A DNA stretch of 64,000 nt from Hyphomicrobiaceae bacterium (GCA_049116495.1 JAGDYV010000029.1:3040-67039); one strand, 5' to 3'; shown: positions 12,362 to 49,813, counted from the first letter of the stretch. Notes: generated by a model from the letters alone, not told the origin. Program-made: numbers and translations.

Positions 12362-12450
12362 TTCCTTTCGAAAAAATGCACACTTTCCGTGCGCCGATCT
12401 ACACGCTCAAGGTGTTTGCGGAAATGATCATCCAGGTTTTACTCGACGCT

Positions 12451-12822: not shown

Positions 12823-13444
12823 CGCTGTCCTCCGCAGTCGAAAGCTTCAAGACAAGGGCCATCGAAAACTGTCCGATTGCAAAAGGAAACCCCATGAGCC
12901 AGGTGCTGAGCACATCGCCCGGTTGCGCAAAATATTTGGCAGCGATGATCAACACGCATATGCCGGACACTAGATACCATCCAGCGACCAACTTGATCGA
13001 CCGCGGCAGATTGCGCGCGGCGGAGAACAGACCGAGTGCGACGAGCACTTGCCAAATACCAGGCAGCAGCCAGGAGGCGTTTGGGGCAAACTGAAGGATG
13101 ACAACTCCAATGGCCGCGCCAGACAAGCCCGCTGGTATGAAATTCTCGATTGCACTGATGAGCATGGCGTCGGCCAGGCCGCCATGCTCGCGATAGGTGC
13201 GGGAGATCATTTCGCTGCCGATCATGCCGGCGCAGACCAATGCCGTCGCCGTCCACCACAGCAGATAAGTCTCATTGTCGCCAGCAAAGGCCTGCGGCCA
13301 GGTCGACTGCAGAAATGCCATACCAATGGCCAGGCCGCCGGTCAGCGCTATGACGAGCGGTCCGAACCCGCGAAACAATGTGTCTGCCGCGAGACGACTG
13401 CGAATATCGACGATGTCTGCCAGGGCCTTGTCTAGCTCACTCAT
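12809..13444 (-). CDS. Hypothetical polytopic membrane protein (first gene of the regulator operon)
   Basis: 211 aa from ATG 13444 (MSELDKALADIV...). Several hydrophobic spans (GPLVIALTGGLAIGMAF, LLWWTATALVCAGMIG, AIGVVILQFAP, GIWQVLVALGLF, GWYLVSGICVLIIAA). 14-nt overlap with the regulator gene. The longer ORF to 13627 adds sequence that does not look like protein. Confidence 0.6.
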   Translation of the reverse strand: MSELDKALADIVDIRSRLAADTLFRGFGPLVIALTGGLAIGMAFLQSTWPQAFAGDNETYLLWWTATALVCAGMIGSEMISRTYREHGGLADAMLISAIENFIPAGLSGAAIGVVILQFAPNASWLLPGIWQVLVALGLFSAARNLPRSIKLVAGWYLVSGICVLIIAAKYFAQPGDVLSTWLMGFPFAIGQFSMALVLKLSTAEDSDAEA

Positions 13445-13460
13445 CTTTGCCTCGCACCTT

Positions 13461-13477
13461 ACTTTGTATTGCAAAGT
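13461..13477. promoter_or_regulatory. Palindrome ACTTTG-tattG-CAAAGT, 17 nt upstream of the membrane-protein start (operator-like site A)
   Basis: Read directly: the same 6-bp arms and 5-bp spacing as site B at 12345-12361. It lies in the promoter/5' UTR region of the minus-strand operon. Confidence 0.5.
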
Positions 13478-13644
13478 ATTATGTAAATTGAATGTGCGCA
13501 AGCATAGATGCAAGGTTGTCGTTAAAAAGGTTGCCGGCGGGCGGCGCCATGCAAGCAGCTGCGTGCTTCGCACGCGGGGCACGGTCGCTGTTGCGGCCTC
13601 GAAAGTGAATGCGACTGGATACGACATGCATCAGCATGTCGGAA

Positions 13645-14529
13645 TCACTTCTTGCTGACGAAGCGATACGTCACAAGCTCTTTGCGTGTGAAAATATAAA
13701 GTTGATCGCTCGGTGTCTTCATGGCGTGAATCCAGGCAGCTGGATCGATACCCATTTTGCCGAGATGCTCCTGCACCTGACCGCTGATGGCCTGCGCATG
13801 CGCCATGCCATCATTGATGCCGCCTGGCGTCGCCGCCGCTGCATAGATTTGGTGCACGCCGATCCACGCCCGTCTACCGGCCGTGCGACGCTTGCCACCC
13901 GAAAAAACGATCGGACACGATGAAGCGCAATAAGCATCAGTCGGCACGACCGTGTCGATATTGTTGCGTCTCAGCACGCGAGACATTTCAAGAGCATCAC
14001 GCACCGATCCACCAGGCGAATGCAGATAGAGCCTTTTCAACTCGCCAGACTGAGCTTCGAGGAAGTTGGCAAATTGCTTGTCCGTGCCCTTTCCAATGCG
14101 ACCCACCGCACTGGCAGCACCATTCGGCCCCCGCACAAATGTCATCGGTTGCCCGACCGCTTTGTGTGGCACGGGTTTTGAATATCCCGGCAGCCTTGCT
14201 TCCTTGCCGGATCGATGTATCGGCGTCGCACGCGGCAGGTAAGGACGCACCTGGTCCTGCCGTCGAGGCGGCTGCATCACCACCGGTTCAGTTTGCTTGA
14301 CTTGTCCAGGGAGAGGCGCGCTGGCCTCCTCATAAATCTGTCGGAAGTCGAGCGCGATGAAGACGACCGCCGCCGTTGCCAAGCCGCGAAACACCAGGCG
14401 CAGCAGATTGTCTTCGCTGATCCATCGCAGGAAGATCGACTTGGGTCGAGCCGCGTGGTCCTGAGCGGTCGTGGCGTGTTCATTGGCTGGCGGTTCGATC
14501 ACGGCCCTAGTCCCTCGTTTGCTCGCCAT
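13645..14529 (-). CDS. Membrane-anchored ClpP/SppA-fold-like periplasmic protein (resembles the 'predicted periplasmic protein' COG3904 group)
   Basis: One N-terminal TM span (LVFRGLATAAVVFIALDF). The C-terminal domain has LYLHSPGGSVRDALEMSRVLR...AYCASSCPIVFSGGKRR, reminiscent of the ClpP-fold oxyanion and Ser regions. Confidence 0.6.
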   Translation of the reverse strand: MASKRGTRAVIEPPANEHATTAQDHAARPKSIFLRWISEDNLLRLVFRGLATAAVVFIALDFRQIYEEASAPLPGQVKQTEPVVMQPPRRQDQVRPYLPRATPIHRSGKEARLPGYSKPVPHKAVGQPMTFVRGPNGAASAVGRIGKGTDKQFANFLEAQSGELKRLYLHSPGGSVRDALEMSRVLRRNNIDTVVPTDAYCASSCPIVFSGGKRRTAGRRAWIGVHQIYAAAATPGGINDGMAHAQAISGQVQEHLGKMGIDPAAWIHAMKTPSDQLYIFTRKELVTYRFVSKK

Positions 14530-15874
14530 GCTGTGGTTTTGTCATGTTGAAATGGGACACATTACCGGAGGCAGCAGGCGGAGCAGCTACATCACCCCCC
14601 TTGCCATCGCCGAACTCTCCCTGGATTTGCCGAAAAAGATGCACTGCACGCATCATGTCCGCGGCACTCATGGCTTCGGCGTCGACATCAACACCGCCAT
14701 CACGGCGAATCTGTGCCTCGACGACGGTCATGATCATGATCAAGACGGCCGGTAGCAGGTCGATCGATATCGCCCCGGCCCAGCTTGGTAGAAAGTCGCG
14801 CGCATAGAGCAGAACCGCTTCGGGCGGCGACAGCGGTTGAAACCGCGGCGGCACGACCGGTTCTCGCTCCAAAATCTCATCGGCTGCGCGTGAAAGCGCA
14901 CGGCTCTGCGTGCGCACCGCCTGTTCCACCCGACCGACCACGGCCGTCTGCCGAGCTTGCAGCGAAGCATCGCGACCATCCGCGATCGGTGCGATAAAAC
15001 TGCTTCCAAGGTCTTCGGCAACGCGCTTGACGGATGGCGCGACGGATGTCTGCTGCAAGGCACCAATCTGACCAATCAGCTTCAACGCCTCCTCACCAAA
15101 CGAGTTGGCCCGCGCATCAATCGGGCCGGTGTTCGAAATGAGCGCACGCATGCGCGCCAGATGACGCCCTCCCTGATCGAATAACCGTTTTACATCGTCA
15201 CGACTGGCGGCGACTTGATCTGCAAGTCCGTCGAGTTCCGTCGACATCTGCGTTAACAATTGAACGACCGTGCCAGAGCCTGAGGTGCCGGTCAGGGCGC
15301 CCGATGCGCGTTCCTGTTGTGCCAGGCTGGCAAAACGCTTTGAGGCGAGCCTAATATCGGGCAACAAACTCTGGGCCGCCAACGCGTTGGAATGCGCCTT
15401 GTCCAGGCGCTCCTGATAAACCTCAGTCGCATTCGCCATATGCTGCTCAAGCGCCGCGGAGCCAGCCAACGCCGCGGCGTTGAGCCAACTCGACATGGCG
15501 ATGATCATCGCCGACCCGATCGCCATTGCGATGTACAGCATGAAAGCCGATCGCGCATTGTCGGTGTGCGGCAAGAAACGCATCAAATAGGACCAGAACG
15601 CATAGATGCCGACGGAGACAGCGGCTGAATAAATGACAGCGCCAAAGAACACGACCGTCGTCGTGCCACTCAACAGGCCTCTTACACCGAGATATGTGTA
15701 GACGCCGCTCGCAAGTGCCAAGACGGCCAGAGTGACCTTCGTCGTTACATCAAGCTGTATCTGCCCAGCCTTGAGCTTTGCTACCATTTGATGATCCTTT
15801 GGCAGTGACGAGGCGCGTTCAACTAGCGCCGAATCTGAGGGTGTTGATGTTATTCGGAGTACATTTGACGACAC
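14507..15874 (-). CDS. Hypothetical membrane protein with a long helical (coiled-coil-like) central region
   Basis: 455-aa ORF. An alternative start at ATG 15787 (MVAKLKAG...) has the better SD (AAAGGA). It has N-terminal TM spans, an Ala/Leu/Gln-rich helical middle and a C-terminal TM span (ISIDLLPAVLIMIMTVV). 23-nt overlap with the downstream gene. Confidence 0.6.
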   Translation of the reverse strand: MSSNVLRITSTPSDSALVERASSLPKDHQMVAKLKAGQIQLDVTTKVTLAVLALASGVYTYLGVRGLLSGTTTVVFFGAVIYSAAVSVGIYAFWSYLMRFLPHTDNARSAFMLYIAMAIGSAMIIAMSSWLNAAALAGSAALEQHMANATEVYQERLDKAHSNALAAQSLLPDIRLASKRFASLAQQERASGALTGTSGSGTVVQLLTQMSTELDGLADQVAASRDDVKRLFDQGGRHLARMRALISNTGPIDARANSFGEEALKLIGQIGALQQTSVAPSVKRVAEDLGSSFIAPIADGRDASLQARQTAVVGRVEQAVRTQSRALSRAADEILEREPVVPPRFQPLSPPEAVLLYARDFLPSWAGAISIDLLPAVLIMIMTVVEAQIRRDGGVDVDAEAMSAADMMRAVHLFRQIQGEFGDGKGGDVAAPPAASGNVSHFNMTKPQHGEQTRD

Positions 15875-16083
15875 ACGTGTCTATTTCACGGCATCCAGCC
15901 TGGGATGTGACGCATGTTGCAGTCGGCACGGTTTTGTCCTGAACCGGATAAGCTCTTTCAAATCACCGGCGGCATTTGGCGCGCCCGTCCTGCGCCTGTC
16001 GCTGCGTTCGACTGTTCACGCTGTCCGCTTCGCACCACTTGTGGTAGGATTGCCGCATTGCGCGACCAAAAAGGAGCAAGCGC

Positions 16084-16926
16084 ATGGCACAACAACTCAC
16101 ATCAGAAGAGATCGCCGCCTATCACGAAGATGGCTATTTATTCTTGCGCTCACTTTTCGATCATGAGGAAATCGGCCTTCTGCGTCGAGCCATGGAAGAG
16201 GACCCGGCGATCGAGAAGCACTCGCTGCTGCGTGCCGATCAGGAAGGCGGCGCCACTCGCATCTCGCTATGGAACCGCGCCGGCGACAGCGTCTACGGAT
16301 TGGCGGCGCGGAGTGAGCGGATCGTTGACGCGGCCGAAGCGCTGATCGGAGAACCCGTCTACCATTTCCAATCCAAGTTGACGGCCAAAGATCCGTTTGT
16401 TGGCGGCGCCTGGGAATGGCACCAGGACTACGGCTACTGGTACTACAATGGCTGCCTCGAGCCCAAGATGCTGAGTTTCATGATTGCACTGGACCGCACC
16501 GATGCGGACAATGGATGCCTTAAACTTGTAAAGGGCTCACACAAACTGGGCCGCCTCGATCACGTTCAGGTCACGCCACAGCAAAATTCCGCGGACCCTG
16601 AACGTCTACCGTACATATTGGCGGATCGCGAGGTGGTTGACTGCATTATGGATCCGGGCGACGCCGTGGTCTTTCATGGCAATGCTCTGCACCGCTCTGA
16701 CCAAAACCGCTCGAACAAACGACGTTGGACCCTTCTGTGTTGTTACAACGCCGTAAGCAACGACACTTTCAAGAAAGAAGATGACCGCTATTTCGTGCCG
16801 CTCGACAAAGTTGACGATCAAGCTATCAAAACGGCTGGCCTCAAATTTGCGAGCGGAGATCAAGAGCACTTTACATTGACCCCCTATGTTCCTGACGCGC
16901 CGGCGCCCTCATCGTCGATGGAATAA
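16084..16926 (+). CDS. Phytanoyl-CoA dioxygenase (PhyH) family Fe(II)/2-oxoglutarate-dependent oxygenase
   Basis: AAAGGAG SD. EEIAAYHEDGYLFLRSLF N-terminus, WHQDYGYW (HxD of the facial triad), NGCLKLVKGSHKLG, and VVFHGNALHRSDQNRS (distal His plus Arg). Confidence 0.85.
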   Translation: MAQQLTSEEIAAYHEDGYLFLRSLFDHEEIGLLRRAMEEDPAIEKHSLLRADQEGGATRISLWNRAGDSVYGLAARSERIVDAAEALIGEPVYHFQSKLTAKDPFVGGAWEWHQDYGYWYYNGCLEPKMLSFMIALDRTDADNGCLKLVKGSHKLGRLDHVQVTPQQNSADPERLPYILADREVVDCIMDPGDAVVFHGNALHRSDQNRSNKRRWTLLCCYNAVSNDTFKKEDDRYFVPLDKVDDQAIKTAGLKFASGDQEHFTLTPYVPDAPAPSSSME

Positions 16927-22510: not shown

Positions 22511-22859
22511 GCAAAGCCCCCTCCTGCCGCCATAGGATCAAGGGCATCGCCGTGATCCGCAAATCCGCCGAATGAGACGTTATCACTTTCGGGCGCCATT
22601 CGTGAATCCCGCCGACAAGTAATCGGATATGGGCTTGCGTTGTTGGTGCTTGACGTTGACCAACAGGCCAGACGCGTGTTTTTCTAAAGCGACCGAGAAC
22701 GAGAACAAACCTCACGTGGAATTTGCTGTCGAGTTGCTCGCTTCCTCTGGAATGCGCATTCGATTCGCGAACTCCGAGAAACGTGTAAATTGCGCTCCGA
22801 AAAAGCGAGTTTTAGCCTGCGAGATGGCGACCAACAGAGCAGCGCCGAGAGGAGCGATT

Positions 22860-24182
22860 GTGACAAAGCTGAATGAACTGACCGCCGCTGAGGCAGCCCG
22901 CAAAATTGCCGAAGGCGCAATCACTGCAGAAGAGCTCATGCAAGCCTGCCTCGATCGGGTGGCGGAAAGAGAAGGCGATGTCCGCGCCTGGGCGTATATC
23001 GACCCGGATCACGCCCTCGCTCAGGCGCGACGTGCCGATGAAGAATTGAAGTCAGGCAAAATTGTCGGTCCGCTGCACGGAGTTCCGGTCGGCGTGAAGG
23101 ACGTCATTGACACGGCCGATATGCCAACGCAGAACGGCTCACCGCTGTACGAGGGCCGACGCACCAACCACGATGCGGCCTGTGTGGCGGCCTTGCGCGC
23201 GGCCGGTGCGATCATAATGGGTAAGACGGTTACGACGGAACTCGCCAACCTCAATCCGAGCAAGACACGCAATCCGCACAACCTTGAGCACTCGCCGGGC
23301 GGATCATCGGCAGGCTCTGGCGCAGGCGTTGCCGATTTCCATGTGCCACTCGCGCTCGGCACGCAAACCGGTGGATCTGTTATCCGACCTGCGTCCTTCA
23401 ATGGTGTCTACGGCCTAAAGCCAACGCTCGGCTGGATTCCACGTGGCGGCGTCCTGATGCAATCGCATACGCTCGACACAGTTGGCGTCTACGGTCGTTC
23501 ACTGGATGACATCGCGCTGATCGGCGACGTCCTGTCTGTTCATGACCCCGATGATTTGCACAGCTTTGCGGGCAGTCGAGCAAGCCTTCGCGATGTCTCA
23601 CAGCATCAGCCCCAATCACCACCGCGCTTTGCCTTTCTGAAAACGCCAGCGTGGGATCACGCCGAGCCGGAGGCACAACAAGCGATCGAAAAGCTCGCCG
23701 AGTCATTGGGCGATCAATGCCGTCATGAAGAACCTGCCTCGCCATTCGATCAGGTTGTCGATTTCCACTCAACGATTATCGCAGTCGAAGATCTTGCCTA
23801 CTATGGCCGATTTCTGGAAGAACAGCCGAGTCTTTTGAGCGACAACATCAAAAAGCGGTTAGTCGCTGCGCAGCAGATCCGCGGGGATACCTACGTCAAG
23901 GCGCTGCTGGCCCGCGAGACAATCTACGCCGTCGTCGAAAAGCTGCTCAACGACTATGACGCTATACTGTGCCTAGCATCCGCCGGCCCAGCACCGCGCG
24001 GTTTCGAGACGACAGGCAATGCAATATTCAATGGTCTTTGGACCTATCTTGGCGTGCCCTGCGTATCGCTACCACGTTTAACGGTTCGCGATATGCCGAT
24101 GGGCGTGCAGCTTGTCGGGATGCGCGGCGATGAAGGTCGACTGATACGTACTGCCCGCTGGCTCGACAACAAGCTTAGGTAG
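22860..24182 (+). CDS. Amidase-signature family amidase (GatA-like)
   Basis: GTG 22860 is preceded by GAGAGGAG; ATG 22824 is an alternative start. LTAAEAARKIAEGAITAEEL N-terminus, GVPVGVKDVIDT (catalytic Lys region), and GGSSAGSGAGVA signature. Confidence 0.88.
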   Translation: MTKLNELTAAEAARKIAEGAITAEELMQACLDRVAEREGDVRAWAYIDPDHALAQARRADEELKSGKIVGPLHGVPVGVKDVIDTADMPTQNGSPLYEGRRTNHDAACVAALRAAGAIIMGKTVTTELANLNPSKTRNPHNLEHSPGGSSAGSGAGVADFHVPLALGTQTGGSVIRPASFNGVYGLKPTLGWIPRGGVLMQSHTLDTVGVYGRSLDDIALIGDVLSVHDPDDLHSFAGSRASLRDVSQHQPQSPPRFAFLKTPAWDHAEPEAQQAIEKLAESLGDQCRHEEPASPFDQVVDFHSTIIAVEDLAYYGRFLEEQPSLLSDNIKKRLVAAQQIRGDTYVKALLARETIYAVVEKLLNDYDAILCLASAGPAPRGFETTGNAIFNGLWTYLGVPCVSLPRLTVRDMPMGVQLVGMRGDEGRLIRTARWLDNKLR

Positions 24183-27325: not shown

Positions 27326-27799
27326 CCGCGCTTAGTTCTTGAACAGTCGGCCATAATCTGTAGGCGTGGGATCGCGGGTGCTGTGCGTTTGTCTGGCGCT
27401 GCAACTGATGCTCGCCGCCGTTATGTCGCGCCCAACTATAGCTTTCGACTTGCTGCCCGAGGTGTCGATACTCAGTGTGTCGACGTCACGATACTGCTTG
27501 CAGCCAGTTGGAACTGCGCCTAGCAGCGACGAGGCTGAAATCCAGGTGTTTTTCATGTAGTCGACAGACTTTTTTTAACCATGCGCGTTAAACTGCAGGC
27601 TGGTGCAATTGAGGCAACGATCCATACTGATCGCTTCACAATCATCTGCGGTTTCTCAATTGGCACCAAAACGCCAAAGTCGAAGCTGACTGCATCGGAA
27701 GGTGCATGGCCACGAACGTTGCATTGCTCAATCTACGGCGACAGGTTCGTCGCAATGCAAGAATAACCAATTATATTCAATTGATTGAAGACCCGTACA

Positions 27800-28120
27800 A
27801 TGACAAGAACAACCCATCGCAAAACAAGAACATCTATCGTCAGACGGCCGATCGGCCGCACGATCCGAATAACAAAAAACCGCCGCTGCGTTCTGGATCT
27901 GCTCGAAGAATACGGGTGTCTGACGCGCTCTCAGATTACGACGGCGCTGCCTGAACGCGCGAACGGCATCTCACAAACACTTTCCGATTTGCGCGCGTTT
28001 GGATTTGTCGAACACCATCGCAACGGCTGCCCTCAGCAACACAGGTGGGGAATCACTGAGCGCGGCCGCAATGTTGTCAACGGCAACGAAACCATCGTTC
28101 GACGGGCCTATCTCCAATAG
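27800..28120 (+). CDS. Small winged-helix DNA-binding protein with a very basic N-terminus (MarR/PadR-like, tentative)
   Basis: 106 aa from ATG 27800 (a TTG at 27785 is possible). RRCVLDLLEEYGCLTRSQITTALPERANGISQTLSDLRAFGFVEHH...WGITERG resembles a wHTH. Confidence 0.5.
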   Translation: MTRTTHRKTRTSIVRRPIGRTIRITKNRRCVLDLLEEYGCLTRSQITTALPERANGISQTLSDLRAFGFVEHHRNGCPQQHRWGITERGRNVVNGNETIVRRAYLQ

Positions 28121-28212: not shown

Positions 28213-31200
28213 TCAAACCGCCTTCGCCGGATTGCCGTGCCAAAAGGATGTTGGCTTCGTTACGGCTCCTTTCATCAAGAATGCATCCGGCGCCAAAACG
28301 GAATTGGCGCCCATCGTCACGCCATAATGGACAAAGCCGGCCGGCCCAACCGTGCAGCCGTCTTCGATGACAATGCGATCTGATTTGTAGAGACCGTCTT
28401 CCAGCGAATGGCCTTGAATTGAACTACCGATATTGATGCAACAATTGTCGCCAATCTCGACCAACAATTTTTCGGAGATTCCTGCTCCGCCTTCATAAAC
28501 TTTGCGTCCAATTTTCAACCCAATCAGACGCAGCAACATCGGCCGGAACGGTGTGCCAGGGAATGCATACTTGACGGCCGTCTCACTGAGCTTCCAATGA
28601 CGCTCCACCCACCAGAAATAGGAATCGTGAATCGTGCATTTATTCGCGCGCATGCAAAAGCCGGCGATGCTCATTCGCTCCACAATAACACCATGCGCAA
28701 TAACCCACGTCGGCGCCAATGCCGCGCCGACAACGGCGGCCCAGTTCCCAATCGCGTCGTAGGTTGCCGCAGCTCCCGCAACAATCAACATCAGACCGAA
28801 CATCAAGGTCCATTGCGCTAGCAGATGCAACAAGGCCGTTCGCAAGTTGAAAGCGTTCTTTGCGGCAAGTCGCTCAAGTTCTGCGGCGCTCGTCGGCACC
28901 GGATTGAAACGCTGAACGTTGACGACTTCGCGCGGAATTTCAAAGGCGGGAGATCCAAGCAGACCGGTATTCTCCCGCACTTCACCGTCAACTGGCACCA
29001 TGGTCTTCGTGCCAATAAGGCAGTTATTACCCAGTCGCGACTGCGGCGTAAACACGACCGTATTGCCAACGAAACAATCACTTCCGATACGGCACGGTGC
29101 CATCCGGAAGGTGCCGCTTCCGACCTCGAAATTGATAATCGTCACACCGTCGGAGATCATCGAGCCTGAGCCGATTTCAACGTCGGACGGAGAGTCGTAG
29201 GCCATCCATATACCGAAGTTTGACCCCGTTTGCTTGACGTTCGGCTGACGTACACCAACCCAGCTCAAGTAATGCACGATCGCCGAACTGTCGCCGAAGA
29301 GTCTTTGGAACATGGCCGAATGTCCGAGCCAGCCGAGTAGTTGAGCAATGAAGTAATGGAACCCGTAGAGCGGATACACTTTGCCTGGCACCAACAGCAG
29401 CCGCAGCAACCGCGGCGCCGACACATGCAATAAGAATGCGCCCAAATAGAAACCCATAAACATGAGCAAGGAAGCGCCGAAAACTTGCCCAAATGAGAAT
29501 GCGACGAGCCGCTCTGCCGTTGCGTCACCCGTCGCCACGGTGGCGGCCGCCAACGACAGAAGTGCTGTCGCTCCACCGAGCACCATAAGTAACCTGGCAG
29601 TCGCAAACAGCGTCCGCCTCAATCTTGAAGTGGCATGATGCGGTAGATGGCGAAATTCCGTATCTGTTTCTTGCGCAGGCGAACCATGCCAACGTTCGCC
29701 TGCTGGGATTGATTGCCCATCCAGCAACGTGGAAGCATGTCCAAGCTGGCCGTCATCGCCGATCTCGGTATTGATATCGATCAGAGACATTTCACCGACA
29801 AGCGCACGGCGGCCAATGGAAATCGGACCAATCTCGATGTAGCCGTTCTCGGCGCGGTAGCCCGTCATGAACGAAGCCTTGCGAAATACCGCGTAGTCGC
29901 CGATCTGTAAAAGGTCCGTTGCGATTGGCAGCCTGTCGGCGAGGATCAGCGCGCCATCGCCGATCTTCGCACCCAGCAATCTAAGGTAGACGTTGTATAG
30001 CGCCGTCCCGCGAAACGCCATCCACGGACTGAAGGTCATGAGTTCCTGAACCACCCAGAATCGGAAATAGTGTGTGCTCCAGATCCCAAATCGGCCCGGC
30101 CGCCAGCGTCCGATGATAAGCCATTTGGCAGCGATTGGGGTCGTCATTGCGAATAACAAGACCGCCGCAGCAAATACGAACGAGCGGGCTACAATCCCGA
30201 CGAGATCACCCGCACCGCTCGCCCACCAGACCCCGAGCCCGATCAATGCGAGATTTAAGGCGTATTGGCAGGCGTAAAACGCTGCTTGCATGGTGCCGCA
30301 AACCGCGTGTTCCATATCGCTGGCCACGTGAGCCGGCTCAACAACTCGACCTGCGCCTGTCGCTTCATTGCGTCGCGACTCAATCTCATTGGCCAGCAAT
30401 GCCACACTCGGGGCCAAATACACATCGGAAATTGCTGCTCCGCTGTCTGGCAAGCGCGTCGATAAATCGGCCACAAACTGTGCCATCAACAGTGAATGTG
30501 CGCCGAGATCATCAAAGAAATGATCTTCTACGGACACGACATTGAGCCTCATCGTGTTCGCCAAGCAATCCGCGACAATTTTCTCCGTTTCGGTTCGCGG
30601 CTCAACAAACTTGCCTGAACGCGACACCAGTCGCGGGCCATTTGGCGCCGGCAACGCTTTGCGGTCAGCCTTGTGGCTGGCAAGCAGCGGCATCTCATCA
30701 AGCTCTTCGACGTAGGCCGGCACCATATATCCGGGTAACCGACTACGTAAGATCTGAACCAATTGCTCCTGACTGAGGCTCACATCGGTATCAAAGCGCG
30801 TGTAGTAGGCGGCCAATTCAACCAGTCCCGGCTCGGCCTCAAATGTTGTTACGACGGCCTGAGCAATACCGCCCACTTCAAGCAAGACGTTCTCGACTTC
30901 GGCGAGTTCAATTCGATATCCGCGAATTTTGACCTGAGTGTCAATTCGTCCGAGATACTCTATCTCTCCGTCGCGATTAATTCGCCCCAGGTCGCCGGTT
31001 CGATAAAGGCGTCGGGACGGATTGTTCGCAAGATGCAGAAAGTCTGGCACAAATGCGTTGGCTGTGAGTTCGGGCCGGTTGACATAACCCTGGGCCAATC
31101 CGATGCCAGCAATCGCAATTTCACCAACCGCTCCATTACCGGTCAAAGCATCTCGCGCGGGGTCCAGAATCGCGACTGTGTAAGTCGGCAAAGGCACGCC

Positions 31201-32250
31201 TATCGTCACGGGCTTGCCGGGCTCAACTTCTGTCCACGTTGCCGTTACCGTCGCTTCGGTGGGGCCGTACGCGTTGAGCATCCGCCTTCCCGGCCTGTGC
31301 CACCGCGAGACGATATCCGGTGGGCACGCCTCGCCCGATACGAGAAGCAGGCGCAGCGCCGGCAATTCATCGTCCATCGTCGCGAGCAGCGTCGGCACAC
31401 AGCACATCGCAGTGATCCGCTGCTCTGCCAGAAATGCCGCAAGGTCTTCCCCGACCATCTGCCGATCGGCCGGCGAAGGAACCAGCGTTGCTCCCGAAAT
31501 GAGCGGCACCCATAATTCTTCGACGGAGAAATCAAAGGCGAGCGTCATGCCCTGATAGACGCGATCATTGGGCGTATATCCATAGACCTCGGCTGCCACG
31601 CTGACGAAATTGCAGATGCTTGAGTGATTGACTGCGACCCCTTTGGGCCGCCCGGTCGATCCAGATGTATAGATGATGTAGCAGAGTGCGTCGGCCGCCC
31701 GCTCAATCACTGCAACATCGAGTGGTACACCAAGATGCTCACGCGCCGCCTGAGAAGCAGACTCGAGCTCAAAAATCGGCAATCCCACACCGGAAACCAG
31801 AGACCGTGCCGCCTCGGTCGTCACGAAGGCCTTGATGCCAGCATCACCTGCAATGAACGCTATACGATCGCTGGGGAATTTGGTGTCGAGCGGAACGTAG
31901 CAGGCGTCAATCTTCAGTACTGCCAGGAGCGCAACGTAAGATGCCACCGAGCGATCGACGATCAACCCGATGCGATCACCCGCACGATAACCTTCGTTCA
32001 GAAAGAAACGGGCCATTTGATTGGCGCGGCGGTCAAGCTCCGCAAAACTGATATGCTCGCCGTTGACGTCGATTGCAACTTGGTCTCCGCCGAGTGCACA
32101 CCGGCGCTCGAACAGCTGCTGAAGCCGATCACCGGCTTGCCATCGGATCGCATGATCGAACCCGTCAGCAATCAGGATTTCGCTTGTGGCAGTGCCCAGT
32201 TCAGTCTGCCGCTCTGGAGGCGGTCGAATAATTGCATGAATGTCGCTCAT
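28213..32250 (-). CDS. Pls/PosA-family single-module NRPS-like polymer synthetase: adenylation and thiolation domains plus a membrane-embedded C-terminal region with three hexapeptide-repeat (LbH) blocks
   Basis: 1345 aa. A-domain cores YIIYTSGSTGRPKGV, NAYGPTEATV, YRTGDLGR, GRIDTQVKIRGYRIELAEVE, SHKADRKAL. T domain FFDDLGAHSLLMAQF. Three LbH-like blocks follow (GAKIGDGALILADR..., VEIGSGSMISDGVTIINFEVGSG..., LKIGRKVYEGGAGIS...IGDNCCINIGSSIQ...), separated by multiple hydrophobic TM segments. There is no canonical C, E or TE domain. This is the architecture of epsilon-poly-L-lysine synthetase. Confidence 0.85.
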   Translation of the reverse strand: MSDIHAIIRPPPERQTELGTATSEILIADGFDHAIRWQAGDRLQQLFERRCALGGDQVAIDVNGEHISFAELDRRANQMARFFLNEGYRAGDRIGLIVDRSVASYVALLAVLKIDACYVPLDTKFPSDRIAFIAGDAGIKAFVTTEAARSLVSGVGLPIFELESASQAAREHLGVPLDVAVIERAADALCYIIYTSGSTGRPKGVAVNHSSICNFVSVAAEVYGYTPNDRVYQGMTLAFDFSVEELWVPLISGATLVPSPADRQMVGEDLAAFLAEQRITAMCCVPTLLATMDDELPALRLLLVSGEACPPDIVSRWHRPGRRMLNAYGPTEATVTATWTEVEPGKPVTIGVPLPTYTVAILDPARDALTGNGAVGEIAIAGIGLAQGYVNRPELTANAFVPDFLHLANNPSRRLYRTGDLGRINRDGEIEYLGRIDTQVKIRGYRIELAEVENVLLEVGGIAQAVVTTFEAEPGLVELAAYYTRFDTDVSLSQEQLVQILRSRLPGYMVPAYVEELDEMPLLASHKADRKALPAPNGPRLVSRSGKFVEPRTETEKIVADCLANTMRLNVVSVEDHFFDDLGAHSLLMAQFVADLSTRLPDSGAAISDVYLAPSVALLANEIESRRNEATGAGRVVEPAHVASDMEHAVCGTMQAAFYACQYALNLALIGLGVWWASGAGDLVGIVARSFVFAAAVLLFAMTTPIAAKWLIIGRWRPGRFGIWSTHYFRFWVVQELMTFSPWMAFRGTALYNVYLRLLGAKIGDGALILADRLPIATDLLQIGDYAVFRKASFMTGYRAENGYIEIGPISIGRRALVGEMSLIDINTEIGDDGQLGHASTLLDGQSIPAGERWHGSPAQETDTEFRHLPHHATSRLRRTLFATARLLMVLGGATALLSLAAATVATGDATAERLVAFSFGQVFGASLLMFMGFYLGAFLLHVSAPRLLRLLLVPGKVYPLYGFHYFIAQLLGWLGHSAMFQRLFGDSSAIVHYLSWVGVRQPNVKQTGSNFGIWMAYDSPSDVEIGSGSMISDGVTIINFEVGSGTFRMAPCRIGSDCFVGNTVVFTPQSRLGNNCLIGTKTMVPVDGEVRENTGLLGSPAFEIPREVVNVQRFNPVPTSAAELERLAAKNAFNLRTALLHLLAQWTLMFGLMLIVAGAAATYDAIGNWAAVVGAALAPTWVIAHGVIVERMSIAGFCMRANKCTIHDSYFWWVERHWKLSETAVKYAFPGTPFRPMLLRLIGLKIGRKVYEGGAGISEKLLVEIGDNCCINIGSSIQGHSLEDGLYKSDRIVIEDGCTVGPAGFVHYGVTMGANSVLAPDAFLMKGAVTKPTSFWHGNPAKAV

Positions 32251-32260
32251 CTCAAGCGGT

Positions 32261-33547
32261 CTACTCAGCCGCTGTCAGTGAGGTAGTCGCACCGCGTGAT
32301 CGCATAACGGCAGCGACGGCAAGCTCGATGCCATCAAGTCCACGCGTTACTTCCTCGTCATCTATCACCAATGGTGGCAATAATTTCAGGACCTGGTCAC
32401 TGGACCCCGTAGTTTCAGCAATAACACCAAAGCGGAAAGCCTCCTTAGATACTTCTCCGGCAATCGCAGCGTCGTTCCAACCAACCCCCAACATCATTCC
32501 ACGACCGCGTACATGGGCCCCTTCGAATGGGTGACGTGCCACGATGGTTTCAAGTCGCTCCCGGATGTGCTGCCCGCGGCGCCTGATGGTCTCGCCAAAC
32601 GCTGGATCTCGCCAGAACTCCAAGGCTGCCGCTGCCGCAACGAATGCCAGGTTGTGGCCTCGGAATGTGCCGTTGTGCTCGCCAGGAGCGAGTACGTCGA
32701 GATCAGGCCGGAATAACACGAGCGCCATGGGCAAACCCATGCCACCAATGGCCTTAGAAAGACAAACGATATCTGGCGTAAAGCCCATATCCTCAAAACT
32801 GAAAAAAGTTCCGGTACGGCCACACCCAGTTTGGATGTCGTCGACAATCAACAAAGCCCCGTGTTTGGCTGCAATAGCCGCGATGGACTGAAGCCATTCG
32901 GCCGAAGCGACGTTGAGGCCGCCTTCCGCCTGTACCGTCTCGACAATAATCGCGGCTGGAGCGTCAAGCCCGCCCCCGTCATCCGATAGCATCTGGTCGA
33001 GGAGGGCTGCGCTGTCGAGGCCATTTGCATAGCCTTCATAGGGCATCCGCGAGACACCCGCGAGCGCGATGCCTGCACCTTCTCGCTTCCTGCGCGTTGC
33101 CGACGCCGCGAGGGCGCCTGCAGTCATGCCATGAAAACCGTTGGTAAAGGCAATGATGTTCTGTCGCCCGGTTGCACGCCGCGCGATTTTCATTGCTGTT
33201 TCAACGGCATTGGTGCCCGTTGGGGCCGGAAATGTGACTTTGTAATCTAGCCCGCGTGGTTTCAAGACGATTTCACTCAAAGCTTCGATGAATGACCGTT
33301 TCGCAACCGTATACATGTCAAGCGCATGGATTACGCCGTCACGCGCCAGATATTCCATCACCGCGCTTTTGATCGCCGGATTACTATGGCCGTAATTGAG
33401 CGTGCCGGCGCCGGCGAGAAAATCGGTAAACCGGTTTCCCTCCTCGTCCATCATAGTCGCGCCGTTAGCACTTTCAAAAACTGCTGGAAAATTTCGGCAG
33501 TAACTCCTGACCCGAGCTTCGTGCTTCTCAAAAACTTGCGTTTTCAT
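32261..33547 (-). CDS. Diaminobutyrate--2-oxoglutarate transaminase (EctB/Dat/PvdH-like class III PLP aminotransferase)
   Basis: 428 aa. FEKHEARVRSYCRNFPAVFESANGATMMDEEGNRFTDFLAGAGTLNYGHSNP closely follows the characteristic EctB/Dat N-terminus. PLP-Lys region DIVCLSKAIGG. It ends 10 nt upstream of the synthetase start. Confidence 0.8.
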   Translation of the reverse strand: MKTQVFEKHEARVRSYCRNFPAVFESANGATMMDEEGNRFTDFLAGAGTLNYGHSNPAIKSAVMEYLARDGVIHALDMYTVAKRSFIEALSEIVLKPRGLDYKVTFPAPTGTNAVETAMKIARRATGRQNIIAFTNGFHGMTAGALAASATRRKREGAGIALAGVSRMPYEGYANGLDSAALLDQMLSDDGGGLDAPAAIIVETVQAEGGLNVASAEWLQSIAAIAAKHGALLIVDDIQTGCGRTGTFFSFEDMGFTPDIVCLSKAIGGMGLPMALVLFRPDLDVLAPGEHNGTFRGHNLAFVAAAAALEFWRDPAFGETIRRRGQHIRERLETIVARHPFEGAHVRGRGMMLGVGWNDAAIAGEVSKEAFRFGVIAETTGSSDQVLKLLPPLVIDDEEVTRGLDGIELAVAAVMRSRGATTSLTAAE

Positions 33548-34315
33548 ACGCTCTCATGTCCTTCACAAGTCGTGTCAGCGCTTATCAGTTCGCGACTTAT
33601 CACTCAAACAATCGCCTCGACGATCAGGTTTTCTGAACAGCAATTCAAGTTCTATACCATCATACTGCGTCTCTATTCTATTACATTACATGAAGGATAC
33701 CGCGACACACTTCTCTGTGACGCGTACTCCGTCCGTGCCACGTTGCCGCATTCGCGATGGCGACCACCTTCAGGCATGGAGCCGGCGTCCAATTGATGAA
33801 GCTGACACAGCGGGTTGAAGTAGGTTTTTGATTGCGAGGCAGCTTTGCTTGATTAGAGCTTGTGATGTGGGCTCTATATACGTTGTCATGACGTTTGAAC
33901 GAAAAGCACACACGCGCCATAGTTAACATTCCCTCCGGTTAACAACGTTCCTCGCCAGATTTCGGATCACCTTGAATTGGCGTCAGCCTCGGGTCGATCA
34001 GCGGGTCGCCCCAAAAGGCTTTCGAGTTGGTTCTCCGCCGCAGATGAAGTATCAATTCATGTCGAAAAACGCCCGGAACAATGGCCCTGCCGAGTTTCCT
34101 GCATTCAGCGAATGAGCGCTCGGCTTGCATTTTTTCCGAACTGCAATAATGCCGAGTGAGCGCATCTCGGAGCGGCGATTTGGACAGGTTCTTGCAGGTC
34201 CCGACTTTGATACACATCAACATCTCACGACGGTTAACTATTGAAATATAATTTATAATTCAGCATTGTCGCTGCGTTGTATTTCAGTTGAGTTCGTACT
34301 GGTGGAGTCTAGCGG

Positions 34316-35674
34316 ATGACGCGCGACAAACTGTTGGTCATAGGCGCCGGTCCTGTTGGACTTGCCATGGCTGACGCGCTTAAACAGAGCGGCATGGCTT
34401 ATGATCACGTCGATGCGAACTCTGGCATCGGCGGCAATTGGCATGACGGCGTTTTTGACAAGACGCATATCGTTTCATCCAAGTCGACAACCGCATATAG
34501 CGACTATCCCATGCCGCCTGACTATCCGGACTTTCCGAGCGCACGTCAGATGCTCGCTTACCTCAAGCGCTATGCACTGGATCGAGGGTTGACCGGCACG
34601 ATTGAATTGGAAAAAAGTGTCACCCGGCTGACGCCCAACAAAGATGACAGCTGGCACGTCACATTTGAAGGCGGCGAGAGCCGAACCTACAAAGGCGTCG
34701 TCGTGTGCAACGGGCATCACTGGGCGAAACGATACCCAGACATTCCGGGCAAGTTCTCCGGAAAACTCATTCACTCGAAAGACTACCTGCGATCCGATCA
34801 GTTGATCGGCAAAAAGGTCCTTGTCATTGGTGCTGGCAACTCGGCGCACGATATTGCTTGCGACGCAGCGCGTGTCGGCGATTCATGCGATATGAGCTTG
34901 CGGTCGGGATATTGGTTCATGCCGAAGACCGCATTTGGCAAGCCTCTCACCGACCTCCCCATCTGGTGGCTGCCGGTGCCGATACAGCGTCTCATCCTGC
35001 GCGGGATCATCAGAGTAGTGATTGGCGACTATCGCAGCTATGGGCTGAAGCGGCCCAATCACAAAATCTTCGATCGCCATCCAACCTACGGTACCGATCT
35101 TTTGAATTATCTACGTCTGGGTCTTGTACGCCCCCGAGACGAGATCGATCACTTCGATGGCGGCACCGTGCACTTCAAGGACGGTACAGCCTCAAAGTAT
35201 GACATCGTAGTGGCTGCAACCGGATTCGACTACAGCTTCCCGTTCTTGCCGGAGGGCCTGATCGACGTGCAGAACGATGTCGTGCAGGTCTATGGCGGTG
35301 CCTTTCCCGACAAAGTAAAGAATCTCTACATCGTCGGCGCCTCACAGGCACGTGGTGGCTTCGGCCGGCTCATAACACCTGCCGCCAGACTCTACGCAAA
35401 GATGATCAAGCTTCAGGACGAGATGAAATTTCCAATCGGCGCCGTCTTGAAGTGGCGGAACAACCCGATCCCCAAGACGCACCTTCTGGACACAGAGAGC
35501 ACGCGCCGCCGCATCGCCATCTCCCATTGGCTATTGCGGCTCCTGAAACTGCAGGACAAGCGCATGGCCAGGACAGTCGAGCGCGAATTCTGGGAACCAG
35601 AGCTGACGACCAACACCTCCTCGAGCGTTGACACACCGGCTTCTGATACAGACAAGACTGTTGCCCGCCACTAG
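34316..35674 (+). CDS. Flavin-containing monooxygenase (class B, FAD/NADPH two-dinucleotide-binding)
   Basis: LLVIGAGPVGLAMA (FAD GxGxxG), GGNW, and VLVIGAGNSAHDIACD (NADPH GxGxxA). 452 aa. Confidence 0.8.
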   Translation: MTRDKLLVIGAGPVGLAMADALKQSGMAYDHVDANSGIGGNWHDGVFDKTHIVSSKSTTAYSDYPMPPDYPDFPSARQMLAYLKRYALDRGLTGTIELEKSVTRLTPNKDDSWHVTFEGGESRTYKGVVVCNGHHWAKRYPDIPGKFSGKLIHSKDYLRSDQLIGKKVLVIGAGNSAHDIACDAARVGDSCDMSLRSGYWFMPKTAFGKPLTDLPIWWLPVPIQRLILRGIIRVVIGDYRSYGLKRPNHKIFDRHPTYGTDLLNYLRLGLVRPRDEIDHFDGGTVHFKDGTASKYDIVVAATGFDYSFPFLPEGLIDVQNDVVQVYGGAFPDKVKNLYIVGASQARGGFGRLITPAARLYAKMIKLQDEMKFPIGAVLKWRNNPIPKTHLLDTESTRRRIAISHWLLRLLKLQDKRMARTVEREFWEPELTTNTSSSVDTPASDTDKTVARH

Positions 35675-36297: not shown

Positions 36298-37803
36298 ATG
36301 AACTCGACATTGGAAACCAAGGCATCGCCCGCCGACGTCACGCAAAGGAAGATGCTCATCGACGGCGCATGGACGGACGCTATGTCGGGAGAGCGGTTCA
36401 ACGTCGACAGCCCCGCCAACCTGTCAACGCTTGCAACGGTTCCGCGCGCCACCAAGGAAGACGTGGAAGATGCCGTCAGTGCCGCGGCAAGAGCGTTTCC
36501 TGGCTGGGCGCGGGTTGTTCCGCGCGAACGGGGACGAATTCTCCAGAAAATTGCAGACCGGCTGGAAACACGCCTGGTTGAATTGGAAGTCACCCTTGCA
36601 AGCGAGACGGGTAATGCGTTGCGCACCCAGGCACGGCCGGAATCAAATGGCGTCGTCGACGTATTTCGCTATTTCGGTGGTCTCGCCAGCGAGCTCAAAG
36701 GCGAGACGATCCCGTTCGGAGATCATGTCTTGAGCTACACCCGACGCGAGCCGATTGGTGTCGTCGGCGCGATCATTCCCTGGAACGCACCCGTGCTGCT
36801 CGCCGCTTTGAAAATTGCCCCCGCCGTTTGCGCGGGAAACACTGTCGTCCTCAAGGCGGCCGAGGATGCACCGCTCGCCGTGCTGTTGCTTGCGGAAGTG
36901 TGCCAGGAATTTCTGCCCAAGGGCGTCCTCAATGTGGTCACCGGGTTCGGTCACGAAGCTGGCGCTGCCCTCTCGGCAGATCCGCGCGTGCGCAAATTGT
37001 CTTTTACCGGCTCGACCGACGTTGGCAAGATCGTCATGCGTGAAGCGGCCAATCGCATTGTCCCGGTTTCGCTGGAACTCGGCGGCAAGAGTCCTTCGAT
37101 CGTTTATCCGGATGCCAATGAGGACTGGGTTGTCGATGGCATCATTTCAGCAATGCGCTTTACCCGTCAAAGTCAGTCCTGCACGGCGGGGTCGCGGCTA
37201 TTTCTGCACGCCGACATCTTCGACAGCTTTCTCGACAAGTTGAAGCAGAAAGTCACCGCCTTGAAAATCGGCGATCCGCTCGACGAAGCGAATGACATCG
37301 GCGCAATCATCAACGAAAAACAGTTCAGGAAGGTATGCGGCTACGTCGACGAAGGCCTCGGCAATTCAGACGCCGAGCTTGTTTTCGGCGGCGCGCCGCC
37401 GAAAGAGGGACCTTTGTCCGAGGGCTATTTCGCCATACCGACGGTGTTCGCCAAGAAAGATAACAAGTGGCGCCTTGCCAGCGAAGAGATTTTTGGCCCG
37501 GTACTCGTAGCCGTGCGATGGACCGACGAAGAAGAAGTCATCCAGATGGCCAATGACAGCCACTACGGCCTCGCCGCATATGTTTGGACCCACGATATCG
37601 GACGCGCCCTGCGCACCGCGCACGCGATCGAGGCCGGTTGGGTTCAGGTCAACCAAGGCCTCGGGCAGTCGCCTGGCCACTCCTATGGCGGGGTGAAGCA
37701 ATCCGGAATCGGCCGCGAGTTCTCGCTTGAGGGCATGCTGGATAGCTACACCGAACGGAAGAACATAACCGTCAATCTCACCACCAAGTCCGCTGGCTTT
37801 TGA
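36298..37803 (+). CDS. NAD(P)-dependent aldehyde dehydrogenase
   Basis: 501 aa. IIPWNAP, FTGSTDVGK, ELGGKSP (catalytic Glu), QSCTAGSR (catalytic Cys), EEIFGPV. Confidence 0.92.
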   Translation: MNSTLETKASPADVTQRKMLIDGAWTDAMSGERFNVDSPANLSTLATVPRATKEDVEDAVSAAARAFPGWARVVPRERGRILQKIADRLETRLVELEVTLASETGNALRTQARPESNGVVDVFRYFGGLASELKGETIPFGDHVLSYTRREPIGVVGAIIPWNAPVLLAALKIAPAVCAGNTVVLKAAEDAPLAVLLLAEVCQEFLPKGVLNVVTGFGHEAGAALSADPRVRKLSFTGSTDVGKIVMREAANRIVPVSLELGGKSPSIVYPDANEDWVVDGIISAMRFTRQSQSCTAGSRLFLHADIFDSFLDKLKQKVTALKIGDPLDEANDIGAIINEKQFRKVCGYVDEGLGNSDAELVFGGAPPKEGPLSEGYFAIPTVFAKKDNKWRLASEEIFGPVLVAVRWTDEEEVIQMANDSHYGLAAYVWTHDIGRALRTAHAIEAGWVQVNQGLGQSPGHSYGGVKQSGIGREFSLEGMLDSYTERKNITVNLTTKSAGF

Positions 37804-37908
37804 AACGCCAGCAGGCTCGACGACACTGGCACCTGTGCCGCACATCCCAGGCGTGCGATTCAGAAACTCGCTCGGCCCATGCCCAGCCTTGGAAGGGGAG
37901 TTCGTCTC

Positions 37909-39180
37909 ATGGAACCAGGAACAAAGATTTCCCTTTGGGATGCCTCGGCGGCGGAAGAAGACTATGCTGCGGAGCTGGACGGAGACATCAGCACCGAACT
38001 CGCCATTGTTGGTGGTGGCTTCACTGGCCTTTCGACCGCATTGCACGCCGCTGAGAAAGGTGTGAAGGCACATGTCCTAGAAGCTCGGAGAATCGGATAC
38101 GGCGGCTCGGGACGCAATGTCGGCCTGGTCAATGCCGGACTGTGGTTGCCTCCTCAAGATGTCCGGAATCAACTTGGCGACGCGCGCGGCTCCGCATTGA
38201 TAAAGCTGCTTGGCGAGGCACCGGAGTACGTCTTCTCGCTCATAGAGAAGCATCAGATCCGTTGCGAGGCAACGCGCAACGGTACCATTCACGCCGCCCA
38301 TTCGCCGAAAGGATTTGACGATCTCGCGCGACGTGCCGACGAATGGCATCGCCTCGGCGCGCCCGTTGACCTGCTGTCGAAAGATGAGGCGGCGGAAAAA
38401 ATCGGCACCGACAAATTTCACGGCGGCTTGCTCGATCATCGTGCCGGCACGATCAACCCGATGGGTTACGTCCGCGGCCTCGCCCGCGCCGCACGCGGCG
38501 CCGGCGCCACGATCAGCACAGGCGTAACTGTCCAGCGTCTTGAGCGGCAAGTCGACGATTGGATGCTGAAGACGACACGCGGTACGGTGCGTGCCAAGCA
38601 CGTCGTGCTCGGCACCAACGCCTATTCCGACGATCTGTGGCCGGGCCTCAAAGACACCTTTACGATTATCCACTACTTCCAACTCGCTACGGAGCCGCTT
38701 GGCGATCGCGCGGCGCACATCCTCAAGGAGCGTCAAGGGCTTTGGGACACGGGCTCGATCATGTTTTCGCTACGACGCGACGCCGCGGGGCGGATTGCAA
38801 TCGGTTCCATGGGCACCGTCGTCGGCGGCATGAGTGGTCTTTCAGCACGCTGGGCGTCCCGTATGCTGCGTCGGCTGTTTCCCGAACTTGGCCCGGTGTC
38901 GTTCGAAAATGCATGGCACGGCCAGATCGCCATGACTCCCAACCATCTCCCGCGCATACACCGTCTCGCCGACGGGCTCTACACACCGATCGGTTACAAT
39001 GGCCGCGGGATCACGCCAGGCACCATGTTTGGCAGAGCCATGGCAGGATTGCTGACCGGCGAGAGTGAAGACGGCCTTCCCTTGCCGGTCACAGATCTGG
39101 TTACCGTGCCGAACCGCTCGATGATGTCACGCATATACCAGACTGCATTCACGATGAACCAATTGATCAAGAGCATTTAA
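37909..39180 (+). CDS. FAD-dependent oxidoreductase (DAO family; gamma-glutamylputrescine oxidase/PuuB-like)
   Basis: ATG 37909 follows GGAAGGGGAG. ELAIVGGGFTGLSTALHAAEKG dinucleotide-binding motif. Size and layout match the DAO family. Confidence 0.8.
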   Translation: MEPGTKISLWDASAAEEDYAAELDGDISTELAIVGGGFTGLSTALHAAEKGVKAHVLEARRIGYGGSGRNVGLVNAGLWLPPQDVRNQLGDARGSALIKLLGEAPEYVFSLIEKHQIRCEATRNGTIHAAHSPKGFDDLARRADEWHRLGAPVDLLSKDEAAEKIGTDKFHGGLLDHRAGTINPMGYVRGLARAARGAGATISTGVTVQRLERQVDDWMLKTTRGTVRAKHVVLGTNAYSDDLWPGLKDTFTIIHYFQLATEPLGDRAAHILKERQGLWDTGSIMFSLRRDAAGRIAIGSMGTVVGGMSGLSARWASRMLRRLFPELGPVSFENAWHGQIAMTPNHLPRIHRLADGLYTPIGYNGRGITPGTMFGRAMAGLLTGESEDGLPLPVTDLVTVPNRSMMSRIYQTAFTMNQLIKSI

Positions 39181-49790: not shown

Positions 49791-49813
49791 CGTTTCGCTG
49801 CGTCCCTGGAAAA

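Follow-up and report, generated by a model that had tools for sequence, protein, structure and literature searches.

We analysed a 64,000-nucleotide stretch of DNA from an uncultured Hyphomicrobiaceae bacterium (GCA_049116495.1, JAGDYV010000029.1:3040-67039), hereafter called the window, and found on its minus strand an ectB-type gene for an L-2,4-diaminobutyrate (Dab) transaminase directly followed by a gene for a Pls/PosA-family membrane nonribosomal peptide synthetase (NRPS). The probable product of this operon is a positively charged polymer of a single amino acid, with gamma-poly-L-2,4-diaminobutyrate as the likeliest candidate. We directly observed the families to which the two proteins belong, the domain layout of the synthetase, the identity of its specificity code to that of an L-Dab polymer synthetase, and a recurrent linkage of ectB to synthetases with this type of code.

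The ectB-synthetase gene pair

The pair is composed of the following elements:

32261-33547, minus strand: ectB-type L-2,4-diaminobutyrate:2-oxoglutarate transaminase, 428 aa, with the pyridoxal phosphate lysine at K265 (TIGR02407, NF006733, alignment to 6rl5)
32251-32260, minus strand: 10-nt spacer (accgcttgag) from the ectB stop codon TAG to the synthetase ATG (sequence read)
28213-32250, minus strand: Pls/PosA-family single-module membrane NRPS, 1345 aa, predicted gamma-poly-L-Dab synthetase (TIGR02353, TIGR01733, Pfam)

Translation returned both open reading frames (ORFs) at exactly these coordinates, and the sequence between the genes agrees with them. Indeed, an earlier note on this DNA had described two same-strand genes 10 nt apart, ectB upstream and the synthetase downstream, and this layout stands. 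The 10-nt spacing suggests that the two genes are co-transcribed and makes translational coupling probable. The same gap recurs in the Hyphomicrobiaceae locus L055, where ectB ends at 7990 and the NRPS starts at 8001. The synthetase is 100% identical to a database entry from a Hyphomicrobiaceae metagenome-assembled genome (MAG; entry P0001).

The ectB product belongs to Pfam Aminotran_3 and scored 599 bits against TIGR02407 ectoine_ectB (cutoff 552) and 622 bits against NF006733 (cutoff 438), while the models of gamma-aminobutyrate aminotransferase (GABA-AT) gave 210 bits at most, under their own cutoffs. Coherently, its best solved relative is the C. salexigens EctB (6rl5), with 488 bits over a full-length alignment, versus 187 bits for the best GABA aminotransferase in the PDB. 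With the equivalog cutoff passed and this difference among solved structures, the protein is EctB-like, as previously proposed, and closer to EctB than to the GABA, ornithine, or acetylornithine transaminases.

The window ORFs were scanned for genes that could accompany the pair or compete with it for Dab. None of them was an ectA, ectC, or EctD gene, an aspartate kinase, a DapF-like racemase, a second NRPS, or a 4'-phosphopantetheinyl transferase (PPTase), nor were SbnA/SbnB-type genes for L-2,3-diaminopropionate (Dap) synthesis or a lysine 2,3-aminomutase detected. The claim that no other Dab-consuming gene lies nearby therefore holds for ectA, ectC, EctD, and further NRPSs among these ORFs. 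A PhyH-family ORF at 16084-16926 was considered as the ectoine hydroxylase EctD and rejected (79 bits vs a cutoff of 336).

Specificity code of the adenylation domain

To extract the specificity code of the adenylation domain, we used the A4 (FDxS), A5 (NxYGPTE), and A10 motifs as anchors, together with the numbering of GrsA-PheA. The 10 residues are DFECLSAVTK, of which the first three are D240, F241, and E244. The codes of the characterised enzymes (PMC10522769 Suppl. Table 2) are listed below:

L-Dab (S. celluloflavus, BCD58482.1): DFECLSAVTK
D-Dab (PddA): DFECLSCVSK
Dap: DFEYVGTVTK
Ornithine (PosA): DMEHNGTVSK
Lysine (Pls): DAESIGTVVK
beta-Lysine: DGESVSVVNK

The full code, whose extraction had been proposed as a check, matches that of the experimentally characterised S. 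celluloflavus L-Dab polymer synthetase at 10/10 positions. In the enzymes of this family, the Asp at code position 1 and the Glu at position 3 bind the alpha- and side-chain amino groups of the diamino acid (PMC10522769), and the window synthetase carries both (D240 and E244). Position 2, corresponding to position 236, is Phe in the window enzyme, as in the Dab and Dap enzymes, and it is Ala in the lysine, Met in the ornithine, and Gly in the beta-lysine enzymes. For PosA, structure and mutagenesis show that the residue at this position (Met218) helps to set specificity, with the M218A variant about 10-fold more active on L-lysine, and a trend from Phe (Dap, Dab) to Met (ornithine) to Ala (lysine) follows the increasing length of the substrate (PMC10522769). 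Positions 4-7, in turn, split the Dab (C, L, S, A) from the Dap (Y, V, G, T) codes. Phe at position 236 and the 10/10 match to the L-Dab code disfavour lysine, ornithine, and beta-lysine, so the earlier caveat that these monomers stay possible loses most of its weight.

A polymer of D-Dab, such as that of Streptoalloteichus hindustanus, would share the enzyme family and the type of precursor enzyme (PddC) with the window pair, and the window code differs from that of PddA at just 2/10 positions. Nonetheless, the code is exactly that of the L-Dab enzyme, and no DapF- or PddB-like racemase is coupled to the synthetase: the upstream gene is ectB, the downstream one is a small convergent helix-turn-helix ORF, and none of the scanned window ORFs matched DAP_epimerase. 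On this evidence, a poly-D-Dab product is extremely improbable, and we retain the L-polymer.

Linkage of ectB to the code type

To assess how often the pair recurs, we selected one genome per species, obtaining 54 related loci, and added five contexts from close metagenomic homologues. EctB homologues with 49-88% identity lie directly beside the synthetase in 13 surveyed loci:

L001, L055, L058, L059, and L005: Hyphomicrobiaceae
L003: Thiothrix
L004: Leisingera
L021: Devosia (divergent orientation)
L023: Hyphomicrobiales MAG
L035: Alphaproteobacteria MAG
L040: Gammaproteobacteria
L044: Desulfobulbia
L031: Streptomycetaceae (ectB downstream of the synthetase)

All the ectB-adjacent loci with an intact synthetase have a code of the type DFEC[LIVM]S[AV]V[TS]K. 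Counting the window, ectB is adjacent in 13/16 loci with this code type and in 0/30 of the others (46 loci; Fisher p=5.5e-9); after collapsing close relatives, the counts are 11/13 and 0/10 (p=6.7e-5). These p-values are indicative only, since the loci are phylogenetically related. The 30 other loci have codes of the DFEA[IL]VTVT (rhizobia, Aureimonas, and others), DFEC-x-V, and DFEY-x-V types, and include the Brucella/Ochrobactrum loci, whose code is unreadable by motif search. In the neighbour-joining tree, the window enzyme falls within a Hyphomicrobiaceae clade, and the ectB-linked enzymes are scattered along the backbone instead of forming one recent clade. Across lineages, ectB is the sole neighbour common to the ectB-synthetase loci.

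The code and its association with ectB bear together on whether the enzyme polymerises another diamino acid (Dap, ornithine, lysine, or beta-lysine), with ectB adjacent for some other reason. Synthetases for Dap and for Dab are closely related and not easily told apart by their overall sequences, and PosA has low side activity on several diamino acids (PMC10522769). Indeed, the A-domain core of the window enzyme is about 57% identical to the published fragments of both the L-Dab and the Dap enzymes, 53% to D-Dab, 52% to beta-lysine, and 43% to lysine and ornithine, values that are approximate, as the reference fragments from the PMC10522769 supplement are OCR-derived and contain errors. On the other hand, the code differs from the Dap code at 4/10 positions and from those for lysine, ornithine, and beta-lysine at position 236 and others; the window ORFs hold none of the Dap- or beta-lysine-type genes searched for; and the ectB linkage is specific to the code type of the window. 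We thus consider a different monomer quite unlikely. Dab, the monomer named in the earlier note, is the one to which both the L-Dab code and the confinement of adjacent ectB to this code type point.

Other genes were seen at some of these loci. An Sfp-type PPTase lies near four of them (L003:7293-8063, L023:11468-12196, L035:14605-15342, and L040:13263-13868), and a peptidase S41 near three (L005:5859-7124, L035:15581-17017, and L040:14151-15599). The S41 protease could be a polymer processing or self-protection enzyme. Neither gene adjoins the window pair. In L035, the synthetase (10392-14019) is in three ORF pieces beside an intact ectB, either as a pseudogene or because of assembly frameshifts. 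In addition, three homologues of 1634-1678 aa (P0045, P0087, and P0116) carry a fused 4'-phosphopantetheinyl transferase domain (PF01648) and are self-priming synthetases.

The rhizobial Pls-type synthetases with code DFEA[IL]VTVT (L013:6011-15400 of Rhizobium, and related loci) have a different, conserved-looking context, with glutamine-synthetase-like, N-formylglutamate amidohydrolase-like, PPTase, and GNAT genes, and a class-III aminotransferase whose identity to EctB is only 30%. For one rhizobial enzyme, Dap was the guess made in the PosA paper (PMC10522769); this context does not obviously fit Dap synthesis.

Domain anatomy of the synthetase and proposed mechanism

Pfam identified four families only in the 1345-aa synthetase, AMP-binding (47-389), AMP-binding_C (451-527), PP-binding (559-621), and Hexapep, and no Condensation or Thioesterase domain. 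The A domain scored 413 bits against TIGR01733, and the core motifs are in place: SGSTG 196, FDFSVEE 239, NAYGPTE 326, YRTGD 416, GRIDTQVKIRG 434, SHKADR 525, and LGAHS 582. Pfam, TIGR01733, and the motif positions therefore agree on one adenylation and one thiolation domain (GAHS), with neither condensation nor thioesterase domain, as first described. The domains are arranged as follows (TM, transmembrane; LbH, left-handed beta-helix; AF2, AlphaFold2):

30670-32112, minus strand: adenylation (A) domain, residues 47-527 (Pfam AMP-binding and AMP-binding_C; motif-anchored code)
30388-30576, minus strand: thiolation (T, or PCP) domain, residues 559-621, phosphopantetheine serine S586 in DDLGAHS (PP-binding 22 bits, cutoff 20.8)
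30112-30318, minus strand: TM1-TM2 helix pair, residues 645-713 (hydropathy; AF2 helices H6-39 and H44-74 of the 640-1345 segment)
29626-30111, minus strand: soluble domain C1, residues 714-875, helical subdomain plus LbH, invariant H838 and H855 (AF2 model, LbH fold and sequence matches, invariant columns of alignment A1)
29401-29625, minus strand: TM3-TM4 helix pair, residues 876-950 (hydropathy, AF2)
28888-29400, minus strand: soluble domain C2, residues 951-1121, LbH, no invariant histidine (Hexapep, AF2, fold matches)
28669-28887, minus strand: TM5-TM6 helix pair, residues 1122-1194 (hydropathy, AF2)
28216-28668, minus strand: soluble domain C3, residues 1195-1345, LbH, invariant H1281 (IQGHSLEDG) and near-invariant H1308

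The proposed profile search against Pls/PosA models gave a clear result: residues 650-1342 scored 585 bits against TIGR02353 'Pls/PosA family NRPS' (cutoff 423). Hydropathy delimited three pairs of TM segments (~650-710, 880-946, and 1138-1191). The AF2 model of residues 640-1345, built from alignment A1 of 55 homologues, reached a mean pLDDT of 91.7 and a pTM of 0.90, and shows a threefold repeat of one unit, made up of a pair of long helices, a small helical subdomain, and a beta-helix. Homology between C1 and C3 is detectable by sequence (blastp E=9e-13), and the Pfam Hexapep match lies in C2 (residues 1052-1084, E=8e-10). In Foldseek searches against the PDB, this model matched only LbH acyltransferases, including maltose/galactoside O-acetyltransferases and serine acetyltransferase, and gamma-carbonic anhydrases (E ~3e-4, target-relative TM-score ~0.5), and phmmer found weak matches of three separate regions to the same proteins. 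Neither by sequence nor by fold did the PDB copy searched yield a solved Pls-type C-terminal domain. Hydropathy, the confident model, and the LbH matches thus confirm the three hexapeptide-repeat blocks between membrane segments. The synthetase shows every feature that sequence can test for the Pls/PosA family and for the L-Dab subgroup within it.

In the mechanism that we propose, EctB would transaminate L-aspartate-beta-semialdehyde, with glutamate as the amino donor, yielding free L-Dab. The A domain would adenylate L-Dab and attach it to the T domain through a thioester bond, and the membrane part, with its six TM helices and three LbH acyltransferase-like domains, would then transfer the Dab acyl group to a gamma-amino group. 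The acceptor would be free Dab or the growing free chain, the step would be repeated without a template, and the polymer would be released outside the cell. For Dab activation, iterative polymerisation, and the gamma linkage, as well as for export, chain length, and a role as an antimicrobial or surface polycation, we infer from the characterised enzymes Pls, PosA, and PddA and from what is generally known of this family.

This anatomy also bears on the possibility that, in place of a long secreted homopolymer, the enzyme makes short Dab oligomers or adds Dab to a polyamine, a lipid head group, or an envelope component. A free amine serves as the acceptor for Pls-type enzymes, hence the identity of the acceptor is unreadable from sequence; moreover, the window pair is flanked by no exporter and by no enzyme for degradation or self-resistance, and the sets of neighbours vary by lineage, with an S41 peptidase or a PPTase in some and neither in the window. 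Against it, all the characterised members (Pls, PosA, PddA, and the Dap, L-Dab, and beta-lysine enzymes) make homopolymers, and the C-terminal domain of the window enzyme is full length and well over the family cutoff. We regard such a short or transferred product as unlikely and keep the homopolymer as the expected one.

Several points weigh against gamma-poly-L-Dab as the product. The Stachelhaus code is a predictor, and for this monomer it is anchored by one L-Dab polymer synthetase. The linkage type, the chain length, and the export are assumed by analogy, the case for the window protein and its proteobacterial homologues is non-biochemical, and the source is a MAG, with the operon known from sequence only. 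No PPTase lies near the pair in the window, though some related loci have one, and no aspartate kinase is present in the window, unlike in the actinomycete cluster with PddD. Furthermore, two close relatives with the code DFECLSAVTK, L056 (71% synthetase identity) and L057 (68%), have no adjacent ectB, and neither has the more distant L051; no remnant of ectB was seen in any of the three. L056:4099-10038 and L057:4041-10038 also contain the divergent flavoprotein monooxygenase gene described below, with no ectB between it and the synthetase and no remnant detected by tblastn. In these two loci, either Dab comes from an unlinked gene, or ectB was lost or gained within the clade. The expectation that the pair is syntenic in relatives was thus borne out in part: ectB adjoins the synthetase in 13 surveyed loci of several phyla and is absent in L056, L057, and L051, so the pairing is frequent, not obligatory.

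Leader and neighbouring genes

Two features outside the pair are of interest:

33548-33745, minus strand: upstream leader of ~200 nt, presumed promoter/5' leader of the operon (alignments to the two closest relatives)
34316-35674, plus strand: divergent FMO-like flavoprotein monooxygenase (FMO), 452 aa (Pfam FMO-like, 1.2e-42)

The leader of ectB is strongly conserved in L001 and L055, and not in L058, and may hold the promoter or leader of the operon, judging from this conservation. Within it, the motif TGGTATAGAACTTGAAT (TGG-N9-TTG, resembling a -24/-12 promoter) lies at 33643-33659 on the minus strand, ~100-110 nt ahead of the point where ectB starts. The numbers of promoters and terminators predicted by scanning did not exceed those in shuffled sequence and are therefore uninformative. 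Rfam gave no match in the whole window at gathering thresholds, hence no known riboswitch or leader lies upstream of ectB. Two small ORFs between ectB and the FMO gene (33939-34223 and 33681-33929) were rejected as genes, lying in a poorly conserved stretch with indels relative to L001.

The earlier note had listed the FMO and a convergent winged helix-turn-helix (wHTH) protein as possible members of the locus. For the wHTH ORF (27785-28120), this was not upheld: it is kept in the nearest relative L001 and not in L055-L059, its only matches are sub-threshold ones to ArsR and Replic_Relax, and with such a conservation it is unlikely to belong to the locus. The case of the FMO is mixed. FMO orthologues with 77-86% identity adjoin the synthetase in all four relatives with an NRPS identity of at least ~68% (L001, L055, L056, and L057), and the outer flanks differ among these loci despite the common FMO. 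However, orthologues with 63-72% identity abound in Hyphomicrobiaceae, where their surroundings are unrelated and lack a synthetase, so a functional link is only weakly supported and the membership of the FMO in the system is doubtful. The best PDB relatives of the FMO are 8z12-8z17.

If the FMO of this clade N-oxygenated Dab or the free amines of the polymer, the product would be a decorated poly-Dab, for instance N-hydroxylated and metal-binding, a chemical class undescribed for Pls-type enzymes. Besides the immediately divergent position of the FMO relative to synthetase or ectB in the four loci, a weak partial match to the lysine/ornithine N-oxygenase family PF13434 goes in this direction. 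The synthetase-free contexts of the 63-72% orthologues, the lack of an FMO at the ectB-synthetase loci of other lineages, and an A-domain code equal to that of an enzyme using unmodified L-Dab go in the other, making a decorated polymer very unlikely. Unmodified poly-L-Dab remains the preferred product.

Amidases found downstream of the synthetase in L055-L057 were considered as a common neighbour and rejected: with 25-31% identity to the window amidase (22629-24182), they are not orthologous to it. The window contains no tRNA, no transposase or integrase domains among its Pfam-scanned ORFs, and no GC anomaly around the locus; thus, there is no sign of a genomic island.

Elsewhere in the window, the plus strand beyond the FMO encodes, at 36298-39180, an aldehyde dehydrogenase together with a FAD enzyme resembling L-pipecolate oxidase (AmaA model 472 bits, under its cutoff of 600). 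This pair is syntenic only in L001, and its genes look like lysine/pipecolate-type catabolism, unrelated to the operon. A group at 9950-16926 comprises a B12-binding radical SAM protein (9950-11524), a cis-prenyltransferase of the UPP-synthase family (11628-12383), the PhyH dioxygenase mentioned above, and ORFs of 272, 294, and 455 aa without Pfam or NCBIfam match. At 47697-50920, on the minus strand, a 368-aa ORF without family match comes after the gene for a dynamin-like GTPase of 697 aa (Dynamin_N, GTP_EFTU); these may be a bacterial dynamin-like pair.

Comparison with known systems

If expressed, the operon would make its host the first poly-Dab producer outside actinomycetes: no report of proteobacterial poly-Dab was found in the literature searched, in which the poly-ornithine enzyme PosA is the only characterised non-actinomycete member of the Pls/PosA family. 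Alphaproteobacterial homologues were noted in the PosA paper, where their similarity cluster was assigned to Dap (PMC10522769). An ectB gene beside a Pls-type gene and a DFEC-x-S code give a two-feature rule for mining genomes for cationic antimicrobial or antiviral polymers, which marks widespread predicted poly-Dab loci in Alpha- and Gammaproteobacteria, Desulfobulbia, and Streptomycetaceae, and ectB plus the synthetase form a compact two-gene cassette for heterologous production. The understanding of the Pls/PosA enzyme family itself is unchanged by this finding, and both genes would receive their correct names from standard annotation.

The transaminase resembles the EctB of the ectoine pathway (Chromohalobacter salexigens, 6rl5) in its full-length alignment, equivalog score, and pyridoxal phosphate lysine. 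That enzyme sits in an ectABC context, whereas the window ectB has no ectA, ectC, or ectD in the window, which suggests that Dab is here channelled to the polymer synthetase and not to ectoine.

The window synthetase shares with Pls (Streptomyces albulus, epsilon-poly-L-lysine) and PosA (Acinetobacter baumannii, delta-poly-L-ornithine) the A-T organisation, the six TM helices, and the three soluble domains, as well as the lack of C and TE domains and the conserved Asp235 and Glu239. It differs from them at position 236 (Ala in Pls, Met218 in PosA, Phe in the window enzyme) and, while posA has no cotranscribed neighbours (PMC10522769), it comes with a dedicated precursor gene.

A closer parallel is the poly-D-Dab cluster pddA-D of S. 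hindustanus, which includes the Dab transaminase PddC (Yamanaka 2020; PMC8225329) and likewise combines a Pls-type synthetase with a Dab-supplying transaminase. In that cluster, the PLP-independent Dab racemase PddB is translationally coupled to the synthetase, and a pathway-specific aspartate kinase (PddD) is present; in the window, ectB takes the place of the racemase, and the scanned ORFs hold no aspartate kinase. Code positions 7 and 9 are C/S in PddA and A/T in the window enzyme, and the Pdd product is a D-polymer, while an L-polymer is predicted here. Lacking both the racemase and the aspartate kinase, the window locus is not of the Pdd (D-Dab) type.

The closest counterpart in specificity is the S. 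celluloflavus gamma-poly-L-Dab synthetase (BCD58482.1), a cationic homo-poly-amino acid synthetase of the Pls family, which has the identical code and matches the same family model. The identity between the two enzymes is ~57% over the A-domain core fragment (an approximate value), and the window synthetase is ~46-50% identical overall to actinomycete homologues. The host of the S. celluloflavus enzyme is an actinomycete, and that of the window enzyme is an alphaproteobacterium. The pairing of a Dab transaminase with a Pls-type synthetase is not new in kind, being known from the pdd cluster; what is added here is the exact code match together with the code-specific linkage of ectB across phyla.

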